A DNA stretch of 64,000 nt from positions 32,001-96,000 of the forward strand of contig CAVVUN010000003.1 in NCBI GenBank assembly GCA_963751455.1, given 5' to 3'. The DNA comes from Nitrospirota bacterium (GTDB lineage Bacteria > Nitrospirota > UBA9217). The notes under the pieces are model-generated. The model searched no databases. It saw only the letters and a program-made list of their open reading frames with translations, and had not been told where the DNA came from. Made by a program: the position numbers and the translations under genes. Below are positions 6,195 through 35,078 of the stretch, one piece after another (positions within the stretch are counted from its first letter, which is position 1; each line of letters begins with the position of its first letter).

Positions 6195-6587
6195 TTATGC
6201 GTTCTTACCTGCCGTCAAGCCGACATGCTCGTTCACTTTTTTTCGCAAGTCGGCGATATTGCCCTTGCAGATATAATCCCTTACACCGTGCAGCGCAACG
6301 CTCTGTCTCAAACTGTCCTCATCGTTCGATGAATAGAAGATGATCGGTGTGTTGCGGGTCCTGTCATTCCCATGAAGCAGTTCCGCCAGGTTGTCCCCGG
6401 AAAGCCCGGGCATGTTGATGTCGAGCAGGACCAGATCGGGCTGCAGCATGTTAACCAGGTTCGTCACCCCGAATCCGCTCTTTTTGGTGATCACCTCTAA
6501 TTCATCATGCTCGAGCAGTTGCTTAGTGGTGTAGAGGTGCAATTCATCATCATCGACTACGAGTACCATTTTCTTATTCCGGGTCAT
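6195..6587 (-). CDS. Single-domain response regulator
   Basis: VLVVDDD, LVLLDINMPG receiver motifs. Confidence 0.9.
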   Translation of the reverse strand: MTRNKKMVLVVDDDELHLYTTKQLLEHDELEVITKKSGFGVTNLVNMLQPDLVLLDINMPGLSGDNLAELLHGNDRTRNTPIIFYSSNDEDSLRQSVALHGVRDYICKGNIADLRKKVNEHVGLTAGKNA

Positions 6588-7774
6588 ATAAGCCTCCCTG
6601 TTCTATAGGTTGTATCGGCAAAGAAACGGTAAAGGTCGTGCCTTTGCCGTACGTGCTCGATACCGATATCATACCGTCGATCAACTCGGCCAGATTTTTG
6701 CTGATCGTCAGGCCGAGCCCCGTACCCTGGTGCGTTTTGGTTTTAACGTCCTCAATCTGGCTGAACGCGAGAAACAGCTTATCGAGGTGCTCGTTTCTGA
6801 TACCCAAGCCGGTGTCGCTGACCGAGATTTCCAACCGGCTTCCGACGATGCCGACCTCTATCACAATAGTGCCGGAATCGGTGAACTTTGCGGCATTGCT
6901 CGCGAGGTTCATCAGTATTTGCCTGAGCTTGATGGGGTCCGTAGTTATAGTCAGCGGCAGAGCGGGAACGGAGACTTCTACTTTCACCGGCTTATTTCCG
7001 ATTAGAATGCGCGCTGTCTCCGCAATTTCAGAAACGAGCGGCGAGACCGCAAAGCGGTGCTGTGTTACCTCCATTTTACCGGCCTCTATCTTTGACAGGT
7101 CGAGGATATTGGTTATTATGGTCCTGAGGCCTGTTGCGCTCGAAGATCATGAACGAGAGCCGTTCTTTTATCTGTTCGATCGAGTCTTTTTCCGCGGCCA
7201 TGCGCAGGAGCTCGGCAAGTCCGATGATGGCATTCACGGGCGACCTGAGCTCGTGGGTGACGTTCGCGAGGAACTGCGACTTTACCTGGCTGATCTTTTC
7301 AAGTTCCTGCGCGCGCGCATTCGCCACCTCTTTTTGGAGGATGCTGTTTGCCAGGGCGTTGCTTTGCTGGACCACGAGCTGCTTGACCGACAAGAGGCCG
7401 CGATAGAGCCCCTGGGGACAGGTCACAATAATCTCGTCGTAGATGTCCTGCGGCGGCCGCTCCAGGGCCATGTCGATGACCACGTCGAGCGGTTCGTTCT
7501 CGGTCACGACAAGGGGAGTGGTGTCGGTTATGACGATAACGGGGTGCTTGCCGTAGAGTTCGAAGCCGAACCTCCGGAAGAGGGTGAAGAGCAGCTTCGT
7601 CCGGGTAACCAGGCCGACGGGCTCTTTCCCATCGACCACGGCGATCGCGTCAAGCTCGGTAGTGCTGAAAAACCGCTCGGCCACGCTGTTCACGATGGTC
7701 TGCGGCGTGACCTGGTCTTTCGACGTCAGGAGTTCCCCGACGGGAAGCGCGTGTTCCTGCGTTATTGTGACCAT
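6574..7774 (-). pseudogene. CBS-domain sensor histidine kinase, split by a +1 frameshift near 7144
   Basis: CBS pair plus FLANVTHELRSP H-box in 7076..7774; removing one T restores SSATGLRTIITNILDLSKIEAGK into the HATPase ORF 6574..7074; may be a sequencing error. Confidence 0.85.
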
Positions 7775-7840
7775 GTTGTTTCCTTTCTTTCGATATGACA
7801 TTGTCAAACTTTTGCCACAGAGGACACGGAGAGCCCTATT

Positions 7841-7957
7841 AGCCGCGAAAGAACACAAGGAGCGCAGAGTGATTTAAATCTGAAATATACATTTTGGGGC
7901 CTTTCTTTGAGACTTCGACGAGCTCAGTCGAGTCGTTCTTTGCGTTCTTTTGCGGCC
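7841..7957. repeat. Paired nonamer-type inverted arrays with internal REP-like palindrome GACTTCGACGAGCTCAGTCGAGTC
   Basis: gccgcgaaagaacacaaggagcgcagag ... ttctttgcgttcttttgcggcc. Confidence 0.65.
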
Positions 7958-21482: not shown

Positions 21483-21950
21483 TTATTTTGCTGTCTCTAA
21501 CCTTTTATCAAACATGAAATTGTCAATTGTGTGAATCTTGACGTGTTTAATTTCCGGATGCAGCGGGTTAATCAGGACGTTAAATTCATCCGGCATGACA
21601 GCGGAAGGGACTCGCAGCAACAGACTCTTTTTATCCGTCGCCCATTGAGTGCCGATAGCAGCCAGCTTGAATGAAGGTGGATAGCGGCGCCAATTTTTGG
21701 GCAGGTCGGCAATATCGATTACTCTGGGAACAATCGACTTCGGGATTGAGATAGAAACGATCTTCCTCGAAAGCAGAAACTCGGCATTAGTCATATGGAC
21801 CAGTGCTTCAAGAGCTGCCAACGACCGGCTTTCCGCCGTATAAATGATCGGAGTCCCCTTATAGTTCCACCTGCCGCCGGCAAGTCTGGCTCCCTCTCCC
21901 GAGAGATCCTTTGCATATTTAACACGCGATACTCTATAGAGCATCATCAT
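21483..21950 (-). CDS. RES-domain toxin (NAD+ phosphorylase family)
   Basis: GGRWN, SLAALEALVH, VPSAV, NVLINP. Confidence 0.9.
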   Translation of the reverse strand: MMMLYRVSRVKYAKDLSGEGARLAGGRWNYKGTPIIYTAESRSLAALEALVHMTNAEFLLSRKIVSISIPKSIVPRVIDIADLPKNWRRYPPSFKLAAIGTQWATDKKSLLLRVPSAVMPDEFNVLINPLHPEIKHVKIHTIDNFMFDKRLETAK

Positions 21951-22399
21951 GCAAATATACCATGATCAATACGAGTAAGTTCATCCATGACGAGTTGAGT
22001 TCCTGTTTGCAAATTGACGAGTTCTCTCGGGGCTTTCCCGCCGAATGCCGTATTGGGCGTGCTAAACCAGCGCTGAAAATTCTCGCGCGATTCGAATACT
22101 TCAGCCCCCCTTACCATTAATCGTGCCAACTGAATAATATGCTCTGAGACCGAGGGATCGAATCTTTGTGAGTTCTTATATCTCTGAATCGTACGCAAAG
22201 TTATGGGGAGCATCGATGCAAGTTTATCAGGACCAAAACCGAAACAAACACCCAAAGAGACGAGAGCTGCCTTTGTAACTCCTTTCCGGCTCATTTCTAT
22301 CACATCCATTTCAGAGTCCAGATCTCTATCAAAAAGTTTTGAAAAAATCTCTGAAGGCTCTACTGAACAAACCTTTTTCAATACTTTAGCTGTCGGCAT
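21947..22399 (-). CDS. Xre/MbcA/ParS-type antitoxin
   Basis: HTH RTIQRY, WFSTPNTAFGGKAP, RIDHGIFA; stop overlaps RES start. Confidence 0.9.
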   Translation of the reverse strand: MPTAKVLKKVCSVEPSEIFSKLFDRDLDSEMDVIEMSRKGVTKAALVSLGVCFGFGPDKLASMLPITLRTIQRYKNSQRFDPSVSEHIIQLARLMVRGAEVFESRENFQRWFSTPNTAFGGKAPRELVNLQTGTQLVMDELTRIDHGIFA

Positions 22400-22818
22400 A
22401 TATATCTCCTTCCTGCCTAGCGACATCTGTCATTATATTAACGAATATTGTCGTAATTGTCAATAAGATTGGAAAGCCGCAAAGATCTCTAAGAGACAAT
22501 TTCCAGGCCGCTTACTATAAATACATTCTTAACATGGCTGCTGCGAAGATTCGACATGAAAGATTTGATTAAGTGAGGGTTTGCATATAGTGCTCTTTTT
22601 TTCTTTTAATAATTATAGCGTGGGTGGAGCGAGGCGGTGAGATAAATAGCACTGAGTGTTGCTTTTAACAAATAAGATCTGATTCAACGCCCAAACTCTT
22701 CCAGCGTGATTTCGAGGAAAAGACCAACAGTATGGACCTGACCCCAAGAAGTTTCCTGCGGGAAGTTGTTATTTGTCAAGAATCGAGAAGTGATAATCAT
22801 AGTCCCTATTCAAAGGCA

Positions 22819-23988
22819 CTACAGTTCTTTCAGACGCACTCCGTTCACGGCTCGTATCTGCTTGCCGATAGAAAACTCTTCTTTGACTCGCGAAATCACG
22901 AGTCCCTTGATTACTGCGTCATCCCCATAATAGCTCCGCAACGCATGAAATCCCTTCTGCGCGTCGGCCCCCGGAGCACCCGTCAATTTCGCTTCAAGCG
23001 CGATGAACCTTCCGCCCTTCTCGACGAGGAAGTCGACCTCCTGACCGTCGTTCGTGCGCCAATAATAGAGAGGCGGATTCGTCAGTCCTTGCGCAAGAAG
23101 GGTCCGGTATATCTGATTGAATGCATAGGTTTCCCAGAGCGCCCCCGCCAAATGGGACTTTTCGATCTCCTGCCACGAGAACAGTCCCGTAAGGTGCGCG
23201 GCAAGCCCGGTATCGAGGAAGTATATCTTGGGTGACTTGACGAGACGTTTGCCGATGCTCCGATGATAAGGTTCGAGCAGGAAGACGATATGAGACGCCT
23301 CCAGCACGGAAACCCAAGCCTTGATCGTATTCGGAGCGACGCCGACATCGCGGGCGAGGTCCGAGAGCGAAAGCGTTTGAGCGGTTCTGGCCGCTATTGC
23401 CCGTAAGAAGCGGTTAAAATCGCGAAGATTGCCTACGCGCAGTATATTTCTCACATCCCGCTCCAGATAGGTTGCCACGTAGGACGGGTACCAGGTCATG
23501 GGATTGATGGAATCACCTGCGTAAAGCGCCGGGAATCCGCCCTTGGCGATATACTCCTCGACTGAAGGCATGCGCCGCGAATCCGCCAATTCCTGAGCAG
23601 ACAGCGATTGAAGGCTGACAATGCCGCACCGACCTGCAAGGCTTTCGGTGAGATTGTGCATCAAATTAAAGCTCTGGGAGCCGGTTATGAAATACTGTCC
23701 CTTCTTCTTTGTTTTATCCACGATCAGCTTGATGTGGCGAAACAGGCCCGGGGCATACTGTGCCTCGTCGATAATCGCGGGAGAGGGCAGTGAGTTAAGG
23801 AAGTCGGACGGAGAATTCTCGGCATCCGAAGCTTTGGCCGGATCGTCCAGGGTCACATAGGAATAGTCCCGGAAGAGATGGTTCAGGATGCTGGTCTTGC
23901 CGACCTGACGCGCGCCGGTAACGAATACGACAGGAAACAGGCGTGAAAAATCCCGAATCACGGTTTCCGCATTTCTTGTTATCCACAT
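22819..23988 (-). CDS. AAA+ ATPase with DUF4143 C-terminal domain
   Basis: GARQVGKT, IIDEAQ, TYLERDV, KSPKIYFLDTGL, EVDF...EAK. Confidence 0.9.
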   Translation of the reverse strand: MWITRNAETVIRDFSRLFPVVFVTGARQVGKTSILNHLFRDYSYVTLDDPAKASDAENSPSDFLNSLPSPAIIDEAQYAPGLFRHIKLIVDKTKKKGQYFITGSQSFNLMHNLTESLAGRCGIVSLQSLSAQELADSRRMPSVEEYIAKGGFPALYAGDSINPMTWYPSYVATYLERDVRNILRVGNLRDFNRFLRAIAARTAQTLSLSDLARDVGVAPNTIKAWVSVLEASHIVFLLEPYHRSIGKRLVKSPKIYFLDTGLAAHLTGLFSWQEIEKSHLAGALWETYAFNQIYRTLLAQGLTNPPLYYWRTNDGQEVDFLVEKGGRFIALEAKLTGAPGADAQKGFHALRSYYGDDAVIKGLVISRVKEEFSIGKQIRAVNGVRLKEL

Positions 23989-24238
23989 GCGGATATTATG
24001 CAATTGAATTGCAAAATTGTCAAGACCTTGCACTATCGAGAGCATGATCTATCGGGGATGCAAACAGGAAGCCGTGATTCGTTGACGTCGATAGTGAGCC
24101 CTTGCCGGCATATTGTCAACAGCAAAGATTCGACCCCTTATTTTTTCCGTGGAGGGGAAGATACAAAAGCAGCCTGAAACAGATCGGCCGGAAGGAGCGA
24201 TCCTTCCGGCCGTAGTATTCTTGTTCGTGTTCCCTCTC

Positions 24239-26600: not shown

Positions 26601-27127
26601 GTGAACCAACGTCCTCCTGGTTGTCTCCAGGATGATTTGCATAATGGACGAAAATTTCGGGCTCTTCCGATCATGGACACCTTCACGAAAGAGTGTTTCT
26701 GGATCGAGGTAGACACATCGATCGGCGGAAAACGGGTGGCACAGGTTCTCACCCGCATATCAGCAGTTCATGGTCTACCTGAACAGATCCTTGTAAATAA
26801 CGGTCCCGAGTTCGTCAGCAACGCACTGGACGCCTGGGCGTATGCTCGCGGCATTAAGCTGCAATTCATCCGTCCAGGGAAGCCGGTCGATAACTGTTAC
26901 ATGGAAAGCTTCAACGGCAAGTTTCGCGATGAATGTCTCAACGAGAACTGGTTCATGAGTTTGGATCATGCTCGAAAAATCATCGAGAACTGGCGGATCG
27001 ATTACATGGAAGTCCGACCACACAGCGCTCTGGGAGATTTGGCTCCCGCTGAATTTAAGCTGCAAAAATTGTCAAAGATCGGTCAAAATCTCTAATTGCA
27101 TGTGGCACTACAAATGGGGGTAGCTCA
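26601..27127 (+). mobile_element. IS3-family remnant (integrase core plus right end)
   Basis: NGPEF with catalytic D replaced by N, IRPGKP, ESFNGKFRDECLN, RPHSAL; 5' part missing; end ...GGGGGTAGCTCA. Confidence 0.85.
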
Positions 27128-27417
27128 GGGATGATTGGCGGCAACGGCACGCCGGATAAACATAACGATTAGAGAGCAAGTTCGCTTCGAATGAGAACCG
27201 TCGATAAAAACCAGCATGGCCTATTGCGGGGCTTGGGGGCGAGCTACGTCCTAAAAAAAGTTCAGTCGTTATCGCATTGTTAGTTCAGTGAAACCAATTT
27301 GCACTTGACAGGGGGACTATAGGATGTCCCCTAAATATTCTGGATGATGAAGAAATTTCAAGAAGAAAGACCCTAATGGTTCCTCAAAATTGTTTACACA
27401 AATATACCTCGTTTCTT

Positions 27418-28878
27418 TCACTTCCACGAAGTCTTAATAGGTCGTACCCCGCCTCTGCGACCTATTTTGAATCCTACTCGGTAAATGTCAGGAATATTAA
27501 TCCGCTGGTCGGTTGTCGGATAAACCACACCCAAATCCTCAAGATCCATTAAAAGGGCGGTTATTCTCTTTCTATTATCAAATTCTAAGGAAAAACGGCG
27601 CGGCGGCAATTTATCTGATTTCATTAACGTCCCAGTAATGCCTTTCCATAGTGCTGCTAAAGTCGATATATCTAATGGAACCGTTTGGCCTTCTAGAGCA
27701 TTCAATAAGGGCGCTATCCATGGATAATCTTCATTCAATTCATCGACTCTTACTGCTGATGCTTTTGCGACACCATTTTTGATGCCTTCGTAATGTATTG
27801 GCACGACATGGTTAGAATACTTTATCGTTGTTTCCTCAGCAGCAGTTTTCATGGCTAGCAATAGACTACGGGGTGCTACATCCAAATTTCCATCGGCCAA
27901 GTGTACAGGAATCCATGAAAAGCAAAATCCTCTTTTCGGTCCAGTGCCCATCCATTTACCCGTTAAGACCTCAAGAGTTTGACGGATACTATTATCATTT
28001 GGATTTTCGACAAACAGTTTATCAACTTTTCTATATATCATCAGTTTATGAGTCGAACAAAACTTTCTAAATGACCGGCCAGCGTACTCATGATTCGAAA
28101 CCCATCGTATAACAATTAAAAACAGGTCTGCCGCTTGCCATTTGAGCTGGACGGCACTATGCTTTAGTTTTGAACTATCTTGAAACCGCCAAACTGTTTC
28201 ATCTTCTGCCATGTCCGGGCGAAGAAAAAGTTTCAGTCGAATTTGGCTAAAACTTCTAAGGTCCAATGATATTTCAAGAAGAGACTGAACCCAGAGACGT
28301 GCATCATCCCAGCTTTTTGAGAGCCTATCCAATGCATCAAAAATAATTAATATTGTCTTGTTTTCACGTTTCAGGCTTGCATCAAATTTAGAAATATTTT
28401 TTTCGAATGCGACGTCATTACCGCAGACCTTCACAATTTCAGGCCAGTCTGAAATACTTTTACCTGCTTGTTCATCGATATTTGCCAGATGTCGCGCAAT
28501 AACAGCTTTCCAAATTGCAGCACGTGAAAAACCAAGAGATAATAATTTCACTAATTCCGCTGGACTTGGATGGTGCGTACTTGAAAGATCAATACTGAAT
28601 CCGATTTTGACAATCGCATCTCCCAATTCCTTTGAACGCACTTGCTCAGCAACAAAACGTCTTGCTTGATTATTTCCGAGAACCGCAGTCCAAAAGCTTT
28701 TTCCTGCACCGCGAATACCTATTATTAATGTTGTATCTAAGGCTAACGCCTGCCAATGGGAAACAGGCACAACAATCCGGGATAACTCTGGCGGGTTTAA
28801 ACTTTCTTGCGCCTGGACGGATGGCAAGTCCGTCAGCGCCTGTCGCCATATCATTATTTCCTTCATGGTAGGTTCCAC
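27418..28878 (-). CDS. P-loop ATPase (STAND-like) with C-terminal winged-helix-like region
   Basis: GIRGAGKS Walker A, IIFDALD Walker B, KLFLRPD, NIPDIYRVGFKIGRRGG. Confidence 0.8.
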   Translation of the reverse strand: MEPTMKEIMIWRQALTDLPSVQAQESLNPPELSRIVVPVSHWQALALDTTLIIGIRGAGKSFWTAVLGNNQARRFVAEQVRSKELGDAIVKIGFSIDLSSTHHPSPAELVKLLSLGFSRAAIWKAVIARHLANIDEQAGKSISDWPEIVKVCGNDVAFEKNISKFDASLKRENKTILIIFDALDRLSKSWDDARLWVQSLLEISLDLRSFSQIRLKLFLRPDMAEDETVWRFQDSSKLKHSAVQLKWQAADLFLIVIRWVSNHEYAGRSFRKFCSTHKLMIYRKVDKLFVENPNDNSIRQTLEVLTGKWMGTGPKRGFCFSWIPVHLADGNLDVAPRSLLLAMKTAAEETTIKYSNHVVPIHYEGIKNGVAKASAVRVDELNEDYPWIAPLLNALEGQTVPLDISTLAALWKGITGTLMKSDKLPPRRFSLEFDNRKRITALLMDLEDLGVVYPTTDQRINIPDIYRVGFKIGRRGGVRPIKTSWK

Positions 28879-30180
28879 TTATTCGTCCCCAAATCCCAGG
28901 CGCGAGGAATATAATTTGCAAAATTCTCCAAAAGCGACTTTGATCACTTCTTCTCGGATTGTTTCACCCATTCCCCAGCCTGGGAAACCGCGCAATTGGT
29001 CCCCAAAGTAAATTGGCGTTGGATAGTGCGGAGCAGCTTCGTCATTTAAAGAATAAGACACATCGCTCTTTTCCGTTTCGGTCTCTTCATCATAAATTTC
29101 TCGCCATGTATCATACGATAACTGGACGCAATGCTGCAAGGACTCATCAGTAGAGCCAATTTGAGCAGCCACCATTTTTAAGCGGCTGCGTAAATCATCA
29201 GACTGATGACCCCACTCAACCTGTCGTGATTTTGCAAGATGCTCAAAGAGCTTCGAATAACCTTTCCAGCTCTGCATCTCATCTCTCGTAAACAACATAA
29301 CCTCCGCGTCAAGTTGTGTAACTACAGCTGCGCCGAGATCGTGTAGACCTGCCCTAGAATCAATCAGTACCGCATCTGGAGTAAACTCTGCTCCTGCTAT
29401 CGAATTGACAAGATTTTGCAAATTTATTCCCAAGCTTTTCCAAGTATCTCCATCATTTGACAAAGATGTAAGATAAGCTCTGCCGACTTTAGCTACGTAT
29501 TCTTTTGTTTCACTTCCCCACGCTGGAACACAAAAGACAGCACCAGTTCCTTCTGAAAGAGCAGGAACCCGAAACCAATAATCATTCGTTAGCTTTTCTG
29601 GTGCGTTATCCACAAGTGCCTCAACCAACCAATCAGTCACACCGTATTTCGCGCCATCCTTTCCTAACAGTATGCCAAGGCCTGGCGCTTCCAGATCTAA
29701 GTCAACTAGAACGACTTTCTTCCCCATTTTCGCTAGATGACGTGCTAGTACAGTTATAGCTAAAGACCTGCCAACACCGCCTTTTATACTATATGCAACT
29801 GCCACAGGAATGCGTGATTTCCATTTAGAAGGTCGAAGCCAGTCTTGGTTAGTTAATAACCTGTCTACCAAAAATGTTTCCAATTCAGCACTAGGTAAAA
29901 CTACCTTATCTTCCGAAGCTAGAACATCCTCTGGATCGATAAGGTCTCTTTCTGATAGTATGACGCTATTCATTCCTGAACTATAAGGACCTAAATTACT
30001 ATGTAATTTTTCTGCAATTTGCCGACCAGCTTCAATGGATTCAAATTCCTTAACAACCACGGTAACTCTTCCATTTGTTTGTCGGACTATTGTGATTGGC
30101 GGCTTAACTTGGGCCTTATATTCAATAAGAATTCTTTCAACAATTGGAATCACATTGTCAAATAAAACAGAAGTTTTCAC
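28879..30180 (-). CDS. ParA/MinD-like ATPase with KGGVGR variant Walker A
   Basis: YSIKGGVGRS, VDLDLEAPGL, LIDSRAG; about 120-aa N-terminal extension. Confidence 0.85.
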   Translation of the reverse strand: MKTSVLFDNVIPIVERILIEYKAQVKPPITIVRQTNGRVTVVVKEFESIEAGRQIAEKLHSNLGPYSSGMNSVILSERDLIDPEDVLASEDKVVLPSAELETFLVDRLLTNQDWLRPSKWKSRIPVAVAYSIKGGVGRSLAITVLARHLAKMGKKVVLVDLDLEAPGLGILLGKDGAKYGVTDWLVEALVDNAPEKLTNDYWFRVPALSEGTGAVFCVPAWGSETKEYVAKVGRAYLTSLSNDGDTWKSLGINLQNLVNSIAGAEFTPDAVLIDSRAGLHDLGAAVVTQLDAEVMLFTRDEMQSWKGYSKLFEHLAKSRQVEWGHQSDDLRSRLKMVAAQIGSTDESLQHCVQLSYDTWREIYDEETETEKSDVSYSLNDEAAPHYPTPIYFGDQLRGFPGWGMGETIREEVIKVAFGEFCKLYSSRLGFGDE

Positions 30181-30578
30181 GAATTACTCCTTAACCCGAG
30201 CAAACCTGCTGCGCCGAGTATTCTTGCAGACCATTTTTTGTGGCTGTCACATACCTCTGTCTTGACGAAACCAGTTGCCTCGTATCGTTGCGCCACATTC
30301 CAATCGTTGAAAGGTCTGCTCGCTGAATTCAATAATTGAAAGACGCTTGGGTATGCCTTGGGATCAATATGGATAGATATTTTTTCCCATAACTCATTGA
30401 CGTGTACTCGAAACTGGCGGTCAAGCTCTTGATCAAGATAACATCGATTGCGCAAACAGCTTTTTAGAGCGCATTCAGTAGCGATTCCAAAAAGTTGATC
30501 CGCATTATCAAAGCGTTGTACTTCAAACAAACCCTTACCGTCCAAGTAATGTCGAATTGCTGCCTCAGTAAAGCTCAT
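30177..30578 (-). CDS. HEPN-domain protein
   Basis: AAIRHYLD...NADQLFGIATECALK...H...W...RY pattern of HEPN helical bundles. Confidence 0.75.
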   Translation of the reverse strand: MSFTEAAIRHYLDGKGLFEVQRFDNADQLFGIATECALKSCLRNRCYLDQELDRQFRVHVNELWEKISIHIDPKAYPSVFQLLNSASRPFNDWNVAQRYEATGFVKTEVCDSHKKWSARILGAAGLLGLRSNS

Positions 30579-30856
30579 TTTTACTCCAGTAAGCGCCCAG
30601 TTAATTTTAGGACGGCCACAATGAATATGTCGACATTCCCCTTAATGATAGAGCGACGATATTAAACCATGTTTAGCTATGTATGTCAACCGGTTAACGT
30701 CCTAATTATAATTGGAGGCAGTCCCCGCTAATTGCGGGCAACGAGAGCTACTCTAGACTTGATAATCATATCAAGGCAGCACCTCAGCATACCAGAGCGC
30801 TTCAGCACTCTGGTATGTTTCAAGGAAAGAGGCCAATCTAACCTTGGAGGTGCTAT

Positions 30857-31185
30857 ATGAAATTATATGTCGGTTCAGACTTACATTCAACCAACACACC
30901 TTGGAATCAAGGATGCTGAAGGGAAACGGGTATTCGGGAAGAAGCTGCCTTACAATCGCGAAGTCATCCTGAGCACTCTCGAAGCCATACCAAAATGATA
31001 TTGCAGGAATTGTCGTCGAGTCTACCTACAACTGGTATTGGCTTGTTGACATACTGATGACAGAAGGTTACAAGGTGCATTTAGCTGATCCGGCAGAGAT
31101 TCAGAAATACACAGGATTAAAATATGATCGAGATGATGCTTTCTGGCTGGCTGAGATGCTGCGCCTGGGCATCCTGCCTGAAGGA
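30857..31185 (+). pseudogene. IS110-family transposase remnant (N-terminal RuvC-like part, frameshifted)
   Basis: MKLYVGSDLHS, VVESTYNWYWLVD, DRDDAFWLAEMLRLGILPEG across frames. Confidence 0.85.
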
Positions 31186-31298: not shown

Positions 31299-32501
31299 TC
31301 ACGTATCCTTAAGAAAAAGACTTCTAACCTTATTGGCTCCGATCAATTCCTTCAGCAGCGTATAATTTTTTTTCTCATACCTGATGCGTCCCGCCGGAAT
31401 CGCGGGACTGATCCTCAGCTCCTCGGCAAATGCCCGCACCGCCTGCGCTGAATAGCGGCGGGAAAGCCCGGCCCTGGTCCATTGCTTGGACGGTATGAGC
31501 GCTTCCGACGCGAGCTTGTCCGCTTCCTTCTCAACCCTCTCTGTTCCGGCTTGCGAGAAATCGTCAAAAAAAATGTCCAGGGCGTTTTTATCCAGGTGAA
31601 GGGCGATGTGGGCCAGTTCATGGCAGAGCGTGAACCAGAAGTGGTCCAACCGGTCGTAGCGCAGCGTCAGCGCGACCAAGGGGGACCCGTCGGAAAGTTT
31701 TATCGCGGCCCCATCCAGAAACGTCTTCGGCAGATGAAGTTCCACAAGAAAATGAATTCCGTTTTTGTTCAGGAATTCTTTGGCAAGCTTCGGGCCGGCA
31801 TCAAGGTAACTCAGCCGGACCAACTCGCGCAGAAAATCAGGGGTGATCGAGCCCGGCCGATACGGAGGCAAGGATTCCCGCATCGCAAGGGTGGAAACAC
31901 GGATGCGCCAGGCGGCCAGCGCGTACGGGTCCATGTTACCGCCGCTCCGGACGTGCTGCCGGTTCAAGGCGGGCTGCAAGGCTTCAACCCCGATCGGTCC
32001 GACAAATGACGCGAGAAGATCCTCCAGCTGTTCTTTTGCATCGGCCAAGGTCCCGTTAAAGCCGGGGAACCACCCCCGCTTGAGCATCTGCGCAATCGGA
32101 AAACGCTGCCCTTGCAAGGCCGGAGAGTTCGGGTCAAGCTTCGCTCCCGGCTTTCGAAGCATGACTTCCGCCGGAATGCCGAGACCCTCGACGAGACCTC
32201 GGATCATGCTCAGGCTGAGACTTCGCCGGCCGGAAAGAACTTCCGATACCTTGCTCGGACTCCCTATGTACGGCACCAGGTCTTTCGGCTTCAGTCCCTG
32301 CTGCTCCATTCGAAAGCGTATCGCGGTCAAAGGGTCGGGCAACTCGACGGGGAACGCCTTGCTCTCGTAAAGCTCCACCAGGGTTGAGAGCAGCTCCAGT
32401 TCATCACCTTCCGGCGTGCCGGGTGCAGCCTCGAAAATCTCGTCGATGCGCGACATGGCTGCTTTATAGTCTTTTTTGGTCTTGATGATCTTCGGTTTCA
32501 T
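31299..32501 (-). CDS. higA: HigA-like HTH antitoxin fused to ImmA/IrrE metallopeptidase
   Basis: PDPLTAIRFRMEQQGL, VSEVLSGRRSLSL, FWFTLCHELAH (HExxH). Confidence 0.85.
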   Translation of the reverse strand: MKPKIIKTKKDYKAAMSRIDEIFEAAPGTPEGDELELLSTLVELYESKAFPVELPDPLTAIRFRMEQQGLKPKDLVPYIGSPSKVSEVLSGRRSLSLSMIRGLVEGLGIPAEVMLRKPGAKLDPNSPALQGQRFPIAQMLKRGWFPGFNGTLADAKEQLEDLLASFVGPIGVEALQPALNRQHVRSGGNMDPYALAAWRIRVSTLAMRESLPPYRPGSITPDFLRELVRLSYLDAGPKLAKEFLNKNGIHFLVELHLPKTFLDGAAIKLSDGSPLVALTLRYDRLDHFWFTLCHELAHIALHLDKNALDIFFDDFSQAGTERVEKEADKLASEALIPSKQWTRAGLSRRYSAQAVRAFAEELRISPAIPAGRIRYEKKNYTLLKELIGANKVRSLFLKDT

Positions 32502-32560
32502 CAGATGGTCTCCGCGTCGATCTTATCGTATTCCTTATGCGTCCCCACGAAGCGGATATA
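32501..32560 (-). pseudogene. higB: C-terminal remnant of HigB toxin
   Basis: Reads YIRFVGTHKEYDKIDAETI*, with TGATG overlap into higA; no homology seen upstream. Confidence 0.8.
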
Positions 32561-32849
32561 AGTTAGTAAAGCAAGAATACTATCTTTATATGAAGGGGGC
32601 AAGGGGAAAGTATGAAAACCTAATGCGTTACGGAGTGACAACAGAGAGACGACCGCGAAATCGACGAGAGGCTACAAGTGAGGAGTCGTTACAGCTATCG
32701 ATTACGGGACGTAATCTGTGGCAGCGGCGCTGGATTCCACGTTGCAGAATACAGGAAGTATTCGAAATTGAAGCTCCCTGCAGCAAGCTGCGGGGGTTAG
32801 CGCGAAGTGAAGGTTCGTAGAGGAATCTCCAGAATTCAGGCCTACTGCG

Positions 32850-34661: not shown

Positions 34662-35078
34662 TTAATCAGCAGCAAGATATTTAAAGTCATAAACTTCGCT
34701 GATAAGCTTAAAGTCCTTTTCGTTTCTTGTAATGACGACCGCGCCTGCTCCCCGGGCCGATACCGCGATCAAAATGTCCGCCAGCAGGTCTTTTACCCGC
34801 TTCGGGTCGATTTTTTTGTCCCGTCTCAGCTTCATCATGATCTCGCCGCAAAGAAGCCATTGACGCTCCGTCACAGAAACCACGGTGAAGTTGCGAACGA
34901 TCCGGTCGATCAGTCTCCGCTCCTTGGGCTCAAAAGCACCGGCAAGCAGTTCCATGAGCACTACTGTGCTGAAGGCAATATGGTAATACTGGTTGAGCTT
35001 CAGGAAAGCTTCCTGAAGCGTTTCTTTTCTGAAATGCTCGATAAGGAAGGAAGTATCGGGAACAGCCCTCGGCTTCAC
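34662..35078 (-). CDS. vapC: PIN-domain (VapC) toxin
   Basis: DTSFLI, ELLAG, DILIA, TRNEKDF. Confidence 0.85.
   Translation of the reverse strand: MKPRAVPDTSFLIEHFRKETLQEAFLKLNQYYHIAFSTVVLMELLAGAFEPKERRLIDRIVRNFTVVSVTERQWLLCGEIMMKLRRDKKIDPKRVKDLLADILIAVSARGAGAVVITRNEKDFKLISEVYDFKYLAAD

Follow-up and report, generated by a model that had tools for sequence, protein, structure and literature searches.

The 64,000-nucleotide stretch analysed here (the window; positions 32,001 to 96,000 of contig CAVVUN010000003.1 in the Nitrospirota assembly GCA_963751455.1) carries three coupled genes on its minus strand, which encode a HEPN-like protein (A), a ParA/MinD-type nucleoside triphosphatase (NTPase) with an additional N-terminal domain (B) and an ORC-CDC6/STAND-like AAA+ NTPase (C). 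The trio almost certainly belongs to the family predicted under the names PDC-M28 and HINPO, and it probably has an anti-phage or anti-plasmid function. Gene A (30177-30578, 133 aa) matches the PADLOC model PDC-M28A (E=2.1e-28), gene B (28879-30180, 433 aa) matches PDC-M28B (E=7.4e-111) and gene C (27418-28878, 486 aa) matches PDC-M28C (E=3.5e-139); these matches to the individual models are each near full length, and the genes are adjacent and in order. Gene B also scores 174.8 bits against NF047398 (cut-off 90). The locus is an intact, free-standing copy of a named, widespread and computationally predicted family, and is not new itself. An earlier note, made from the sequence alone, had proposed the combination of a HEPN protein, a deviant ParA and a STAND-like ATPase as a candidate defence system without a recognised name. 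This anatomy is upheld by sequence comparison and structure prediction, as is the defence reading as far as it can be tested computationally and the dismissal of a partitioning role, but the claim of novelty falls with the PDC-M28 and HINPO matches. The description as uncharacterised stands in part: two predictions have named the family, yet both names are computational and the family is experimentally uncharacterised as far as literature searches reach.

The PDCs were introduced as 145 candidates embedded in BREX, DISARM and restriction-modification (R-M) loci, in a paper whose main text does not mention M28 (10.1101/2024.01.29.577857). HINPO was named by Li, Burroughs and Aravind (bioRxiv 10.64898/2026.10.19.760177), whose preprint text describes a computational prediction in which a HEPN protein is combined with a ParA whose N-terminal domain is Pol-beta-like and inactive, and with an ORC-CDC6/STAND NTPase; occasional B-C fusion and an enrichment in multicellular bacteria are further traits given for the system. 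The same text defines the ConB2 branch of ParA proteins by an Arg at the second Lys position of the Walker A motif and a PG after the sensor DxD. Our family alignments contain 58 rows for A, 56 for B and 73 for C, the last taken from 120 listed homologues; near-duplicates, truncated or mis-started rows and one aberrant locus (L071) were dropped. Both ConB2 marks (R138, D160, D162, P166 and G167) occur in 56/56 B rows, where K133, G134, G135, G137, E164 and D274 are also invariant. Three further HINPO features are found as well: the upstream PA-HEPN1 position is taken by A, which has a predicted HEPN fold and family members matching Pfam HEPN_AbiV or HEPN; the downstream ORC-CDC6/STAND AAA+ position is taken by C, at the level of sequence; and the order HEPN, ParA, AAA+ is kept in 60/61 related loci and in 15/16 loci of a second sample.

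The coupling of the three genes is as the earlier note had described it. The stop of A and the start of B overlap in a GTGA (30177-30180), and C starts with a GTG at 28878 directly after the TAA of B, a start supported by close homologues of C that begin at the same position. A GGAG lies a few bases 5' of the start in both A and B. To place the 3.2-kb trio among its relatives, we collected 91 loci from a genome scan (1 locus), a metagenome scan (best 80 of 219), viral contigs (6) and plasmid records (4 of 24), and retained the 61 that were non-duplicate, had a complete open reading frame (ORF) for C and offered at least 2 kb upstream. As these are the best-scoring relatives, the frequency of the trio describes the core family. 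By phmmer, B was found in 60/61 loci and A together with B in 58/61, and the ORFs at the A site of two further loci (L001 and L083) match PDC-M28A, which brings the trio to 60/61 loci and bears out the co-occurrence that the earlier note had proposed to check. The second sample was drawn from 401 genomes of the phylum of L001. The C model matches 23 of them, and 15 genomes contain a total of 17 strong places. Sixteen of these 17 were fetched, and B is present in 16/16 and A in 15/16. Overlapping or abutting junctions were found between A and B in 55/65 loci and between B and C in 60/65, where the nearest in-frame start was used, a choice that favours such a result. In the comparison with the closest relative (L003), only window positions 27417-30610 align, at 79% nucleotide identity, and the ratios of nonsynonymous to synonymous substitution (dN/dS) are 0.09 for A, 0.05 for B and 0.11 for C. 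These low ratios indicate that the trio is not a chance arrangement and that its genes are under purifying selection, and the restriction of the shared sequence to the trio indicates that the cassette moves as a unit.

The architecture varies in several members of the second sample. In four of the 16 loci, from three genomes, C is extended by fusion of its C-terminal end to a calcineurin-like phosphoesterase and a NACHT domain, giving proteins of 1328-1790 aa (L147, 5980-11352; L148, 1113-6437; L149, 5980-9966; L150, 5983-11058). The upstream genes A and B are intact in these loci, which represent an NLR-like variant of the trio. One locus encodes a full B-C fusion of 915 aa (L153, 4986-7733). 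In another (L142, 4995-8482), B is truncated to 301 aa and C carries an N-terminal extension of about 376 residues that belongs to no clear family.

Gene A is likely to encode an RNase toxin of the MNT-associated HEPN-T class. Its predicted structure (mean predicted local distance difference test score, pLDDT, 92.8) most closely resembles 1ufb (Z 11.8, root-mean-square deviation (rmsd) 2.8, 111 aligned residues) and 2hsb (Z 11.4). The leading matches are TT1696, AF0298, the sacsin HEPN and ST0689 (Z 11.8-10.4, rmsd 2.8-3.6), and the top seven consist of HEPN proteins or HEPN-bearing Csm6, together with 2jpu, which we take to be a HEPN family structure; the first ranks belong to the MNT-associated type. 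This result agrees with the Pfam HEPN_AbiV matches in 19/58 members of the A family. PF05168 is matched by 2/58, while the A protein of the window matches neither of these and has no match in Pfam and NCBIfam at all; PDB sequence searches with the A profile gave non-significant matches only. Across the 58 aligned rows, R9, G31, E35, K39, H59, W93, R98 and Y99 are invariant. The W...RY pattern pointed out in the earlier note is thus confirmed as W93, R98 and Y99, whereas the lack of an RxxxxH motif needs qualification: the protein carries one nominal Rx4H (R54-H59), but a motif starting near there occurs in only 12/58 homologues. Nor does the A family carry the RX4HXY toxin motif of Class I HEPN-MNT systems (HepT/MntA), having W..x..RY and an upstream His instead. 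That His, H59, lies between helices 2 and 3. According to the parts of PMC3710099 consulted, AbiV and AF0298-type HEPN-T proteins have an alternative His that is conserved between helices 2 and 3, and the MNT-associated HEPNs conserve a Tyr; H59 and Y99 agree with these descriptions. At the level of the model, A resembles the MNT-associated HEPN-T proteins in its fold, and an invariant His and an Arg-Tyr pair take the place of a conserved RxxxxH.

Gene B combines two modules, of which the earlier note had recognised the deviant ParA-like ATPase and overlooked the other, an N-terminal domain of about 110 residues. In the predicted structure, residues 123-430 adopt the FleN/MinD/ParA fold (FleN/MinD, Z 21.8, rmsd 2.7, 241 aligned), and the Walker A motif KGGVGRS lies at residues 133-139, as noted before. 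The N-terminal domain (29851-30180, minus strand, approximately residues 1-110) occupies the slot that HINPO assigns to an inactive nucleotidyltransferase. It is modelled confidently as a separate alpha-beta-beta-alpha-beta domain and is the least conserved part of B, with a dN/dS of 0.14 vs 0.04 for the rest. Its secondary structure is compatible with the dead Pol-beta-like domain of HINPO; the fold search spanned only residues 121-431, and neither a nucleotidyltransferase nor a BolA chain appears in its list, which was filled by the ParA domain. PDB sequence searches with the profile of the domain returned non-significant matches only, Pfam searches with its alignment scattered weak matches, and an Atlas search with residues 1-120 no usable match, neither of the last two being a sign of novelty. 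The 56-row alignment shows no conserved DxD on the second strand, and the GSX10DXD partner motif of Class I HEPN-MNT is absent from the N-terminal alignment. No adenylylation by B is expected in the absence of this motif, and we therefore rejected an active adenylylating antitoxin.

The ParA/MinD fold predicted for B also raises the question of whether the locus could be a partitioning or positioning system without a role in conflict, which we consider very improbable. Matches to PF02195 (ParB) occur in the genome only at C3:348036 and C15:1420348, so that the window contains no ParB, and about 285 kb of the same contig separate the trio from the ParA-ParB pair of the host. A query with C gave no match in 63 related genomes, B is coupled to a HEPN gene, and the Arg in its Walker A motif marks the conflict branch described in the preprint text. 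On these four grounds the partitioning explanation was rejected.

At the level of sequence, C is an ORC-CDC6/STAND-like AAA+ NTPase and the likely sensor of the trio. The Walker A motif GIRGAGKS (residues 54-61) and the FDALD (180-184), both of which had been picked out in the earlier note, contain G54, R56, G57, G59, K60, S61 and D181 as residues invariant in 73 rows, and the Walker B pattern of the family is D-[AS]-L-[DE]. The score against the Sll1717 family (NF047389) is 67.7 bits, below the cut-off of 75, and in the Atlas the closest neighbours of C with a name are the ORC-CDC6-like (PF24389, 13% of members), Sll1717 and nSTAND1 sets, at 0.96-0.98. PDB sequence searches with the C profile yielded non-significant matches only.

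Given these assignments, it is conceivable, at a little under even chances in our judgement, that the trio is an inducible defence of the toxin-antitoxin type, in which B holds a HEPN toxin dimer inactive until C senses an invader. For the order of events we favour, somewhat more tentatively still, a hold-and-release scheme. The N-terminal domain of B would serve as the docking module for A, an MNT-like antitoxin that is catalytically dead; C would bind foreign DNA or a phage protein, oligomerise and drive the nucleotide switch of B; and A, once released, would cut RNA by means of H59, R98 and E35 rather than an RxxxxH, thereby arresting the infected cell. The basis of this scheme is indirect, namely the class of A, the parallel with HEPN-MNT pairs in the consulted text of PMC7641770, the parallel with AbiV and a predicted complex. 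AbiV, the nearest Pfam family of A, is reported in the main text of 10.1101/2024.05.05.592566 as a demonstrated ribosomal-RNA nuclease in an abortive infection (Abi) system. The complex prediction for two A chains and one B chain scored 0.55, compared with 0.00 for the best of 3 controls, and its runs agree in at least 87% of contacts with a partner pLDDT of at least 86. In the calibration of this score, the mark was reached by 116/157 solved pairs and 2/215 mismatched pairs, of which only 18 solved pairs and both mismatches lay at or below 0.60. The prediction thus lends weak support to binding of the A dimer by B.

The preprint proposes a different division of labour, in which C recognises the DNA of the invader and seeds ParA multimers that obstruct the invader directly, the N-terminal domain of B senses nucleotides, and A is only a back-up killer (10.64898/2026.10.19.760177). 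We find this model unlikely, if attractive in some respects. B and C are fused in L153, and A is the gene that is missing or damaged in 3/16 sampled loci. The correlation of evolutionary distances over 29 loci is slightly best for B and C (0.87 vs 0.77 and 0.83 for the other pairs), but such correlations reflect shared descent and were not used as evidence of binding. Set against this, nearly all loci retain A, in which eight residues are invariant, the weakly predicted A-B binding points to a direct control of A by B, and DNA binding and polymerisation by B and C are only putative.

The genomic distribution of the family bears on its function more broadly. Relatives of C occur on 24 plasmid records and on six viral contigs (L083-L088), all six of which carry B and an A-type gene, so that prophages or viruses may spread the cassette; a search of annotated phages gave no match to C. 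Of the 63 other genomes of the class that were searched, none matched C (a single-protein query, with 32 of all 64 genomes of high quality). The trio has a GC content of 42.5%, compared with about 51% across the genome, which corresponds to the AT-richer block of the earlier note, and only 2.1% of 1799 equal-sized genome windows are equally low; the GC content at third codon positions is 0.33-0.40 in the trio and 0.63-0.69 in two neighbouring genes. This patchy distribution and low GC content count in favour of a defence cassette.

We also scanned up to three picked ORFs per side at 41 loci (176 ORFs) with PADLOC models, although some genes in GC-rich loci escaped the ORF picker. In 7/41 loci the trio directly follows an R-M or BREX gene, and PDC candidates in 4 more give 11/41 loci with a defence neighbour. 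Twenty evenly spaced stretches of the genome of the window (115 ORFs) served as a control and gave 0 matches to R-M, BREX or PDC models, with partial matches of the generic-ATPase type and similar only (Fisher p=0.05 for 7/41 and p=0.008 for 11/41). The enrichment in defence islands, which the earlier note had proposed to check, is therefore modest. In two loci (L057, 2183-9535; L069, 2106-9776), the trio separates two ORFs, one matching the N-terminal and the other the C-terminal half of BREX PglX, and PADLOC has models for both halves; on a Streptomyces plasmid (L092, NZ_CP130719.1), it has pglW on one side and pglX on the other, both from a BREX-2 system; and in three loci it directly follows type IIG R-M genes. 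Such settings, the C relatives on plasmid records and viral contigs, and the discovery of PDCs by their embedding in BREX, DISARM and R-M, as stated in the text defining them, would all be expected of a guard or addiction module that monitors or stabilises a neighbouring BREX or R-M system or mobile element and kills on its inhibition or loss, without sensing phages itself. We regard this explanation as rather improbable: library scans found no BREX or R-M gene in the window, most relatives stand alone, and the trio is the sole region shared by the window copy and its closest relative.

Several observations weigh against an inducible HEPN-based defence system and have to be set beside the evidence above. 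The score of the A2-B complex lies in a band that, without a prior, is more often wrong than right, and it may reflect a likeness to solved HEPN-MNT pairs; the prediction gave no interface. The best Z of A (11.8) is below the value of about 13 that the fold-search tool advises for helical bundles. The 58-row alignment of the A family has no conserved Rx4-6H, and the consulted text of PMC7641770 describes Class II (PF05168) HEPNs as lacking the RNase motif and as biochemically untested, so that A may bind RNA without cutting it. In the single exception among the 61 loci (L071, 5276-5887), A is fused in frame to the C-terminal tail of B directly before C, and the core of B is missing; this is either a natural deletion or an assembly error, and it argues against a lethal free toxin, because such a fusion should not be tolerated unless the locus is dead or misassembled. 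In the second sample, A is absent, short (L146) or split (L143) in 3/16 loci. As many as 30/41 loci have no recognised defence neighbour, and the excess of R-M and BREX genes is borderline (p=0.05), with a control from one genome and with seven loci that form two kin groups. Literature searches found no experiment on the PDC-M28/HINPO family, and in one test series, as described in the consulted part of PMC12881386, 4/8 PDC/HEC candidates protected, M28 not being included.

It is tempting to join these threads into a broader proposal, which we regard as doubtful, that the family represents a Class II HEPN-MNT pair remodelled into an immune switch. The antitoxin would have lost its adenylylating activity and been grafted onto an Arg-Walker-A ParA, and the toxin would be held by ATP-dependent sequestration or by modification of the invariant Tyr99, under an ORC/STAND sensor; the whole would form a plug-in guard that travels inside BREX and R-M loci, with one variant joined to an NLR-like phosphoesterase-NACHT protein. 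If true, PF05168-type HEPNs whose active site is non-canonical would gain their first working model. If the trio defends, it offers tests of whether ParA-type switches gate immune effectors and of whether PF05168-like HEPNs without RxxxxH cut RNA, a point listed as open in the text of PMC7641770. Mutational handles are provided by the invariant residues R9, E35, H59, R98 and Y99 of A, K133, R138 and D274 of B, and K60 and D181 of C.

Within the window, the trio is surrounded by a loose accessory region and not a dense defence island. It is flanked by the insertion sequence (IS) remnants that the earlier note had recognised. Downstream lies the C-terminal remnant of an IS3-family transposase (26601-27095, plus strand), which covers positions 227-368 of 369 of NF033516, below the cut-off, and carries rve_3. 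Upstream lies a decayed N-terminal IS110 remnant (about 30757-31185, plus strand; PF01548, E=1.2e-4, below the cut-off); an IS110 on contig C12 is 75% identical to it in nucleotide sequence. A weak candidate for a sigma-70-type promoter lies 5' of gene A (30604-30633, minus strand, 10/12 consensus matches), in a scan that was itself at chance level (15 sites vs 8.7 +/- 3.0 in shuffles); the terminator scan was also at chance level. Further out, a HigA-ImmA gene (31299-32641) matches PD-Lambda-2_B (E=1e-140); of HigB, no more than a C-terminal remnant lies upstream of it. A second HigA-ImmA copy, 99% identical to this one, is present at G000:C8 237481-238683, and there too higB seems to be broken. 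Within 6 kb of the trio are also a PIN-domain gene, a RES-Xre toxin-antitoxin pair and a PDC-S01 AAA_14/DUF4143 ATPase (21483-24045 and 34662-35078). A histidine kinase is encoded by two adjacent ORFs (6574-7858; HisKA, then HATPase), possibly split by a stop or frameshift, and the window also holds many small stress and metabolic genes.

Compared with known systems, the trio is closest to the two predictions that name it. All three proteins are alike to those of PDC-M28, and the only difference found is that the window copy is not embedded in BREX, DISARM or R-M. With HINPO, it shares the HEPN gene followed by a ParA with an extra fast-evolving N-terminal domain and then an ORC-CDC6/STAND AAA+ protein, the Arg Walker A, the PG after DxD and the occasional B-C fusion. 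No architectural difference emerged in a comparison based on the description in the preprint, the Pol-beta fold of the B N-terminal domain being only a candidate. The C-phosphoesterase-NACHT fusion and the split-pglX setting do not appear in the consulted text of the preprint, although its supplements may already show them. The interpretations differ: the preprint text favours an N-terminal nucleotide sensor with the HEPN as a back-up, whereas we favour B directly holding the HEPN. Class II HEPN-MNT systems (PF05168/PF01909) and HepT/MntA resemble the trio in that A is predicted to fold closest to HEPN-T and has an invariant C-terminal Tyr; in the trio, however, the N-terminal domain of B lacks GSx10DxD, two NTPases are added and the HEPN gene comes first in the operon. 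AbiV is the most frequent Pfam match of the A family and shares the HEPN fold (9bj5, Z 6.9), but uses an RNA antitoxin and an Rx5H motif, and the main text of the AbiV preprint mentions no ATPase. The HEPN and ParA/Soj dyad of MAE_18760, as described in the consulted part of PMC3710099, likewise pairs a HEPN toxin with a ParA-like partner proposed as its antitoxin; it differs in belonging to another HEPN family with an intact Rx4-6H, in comprising two genes and in having the ATPase upstream.

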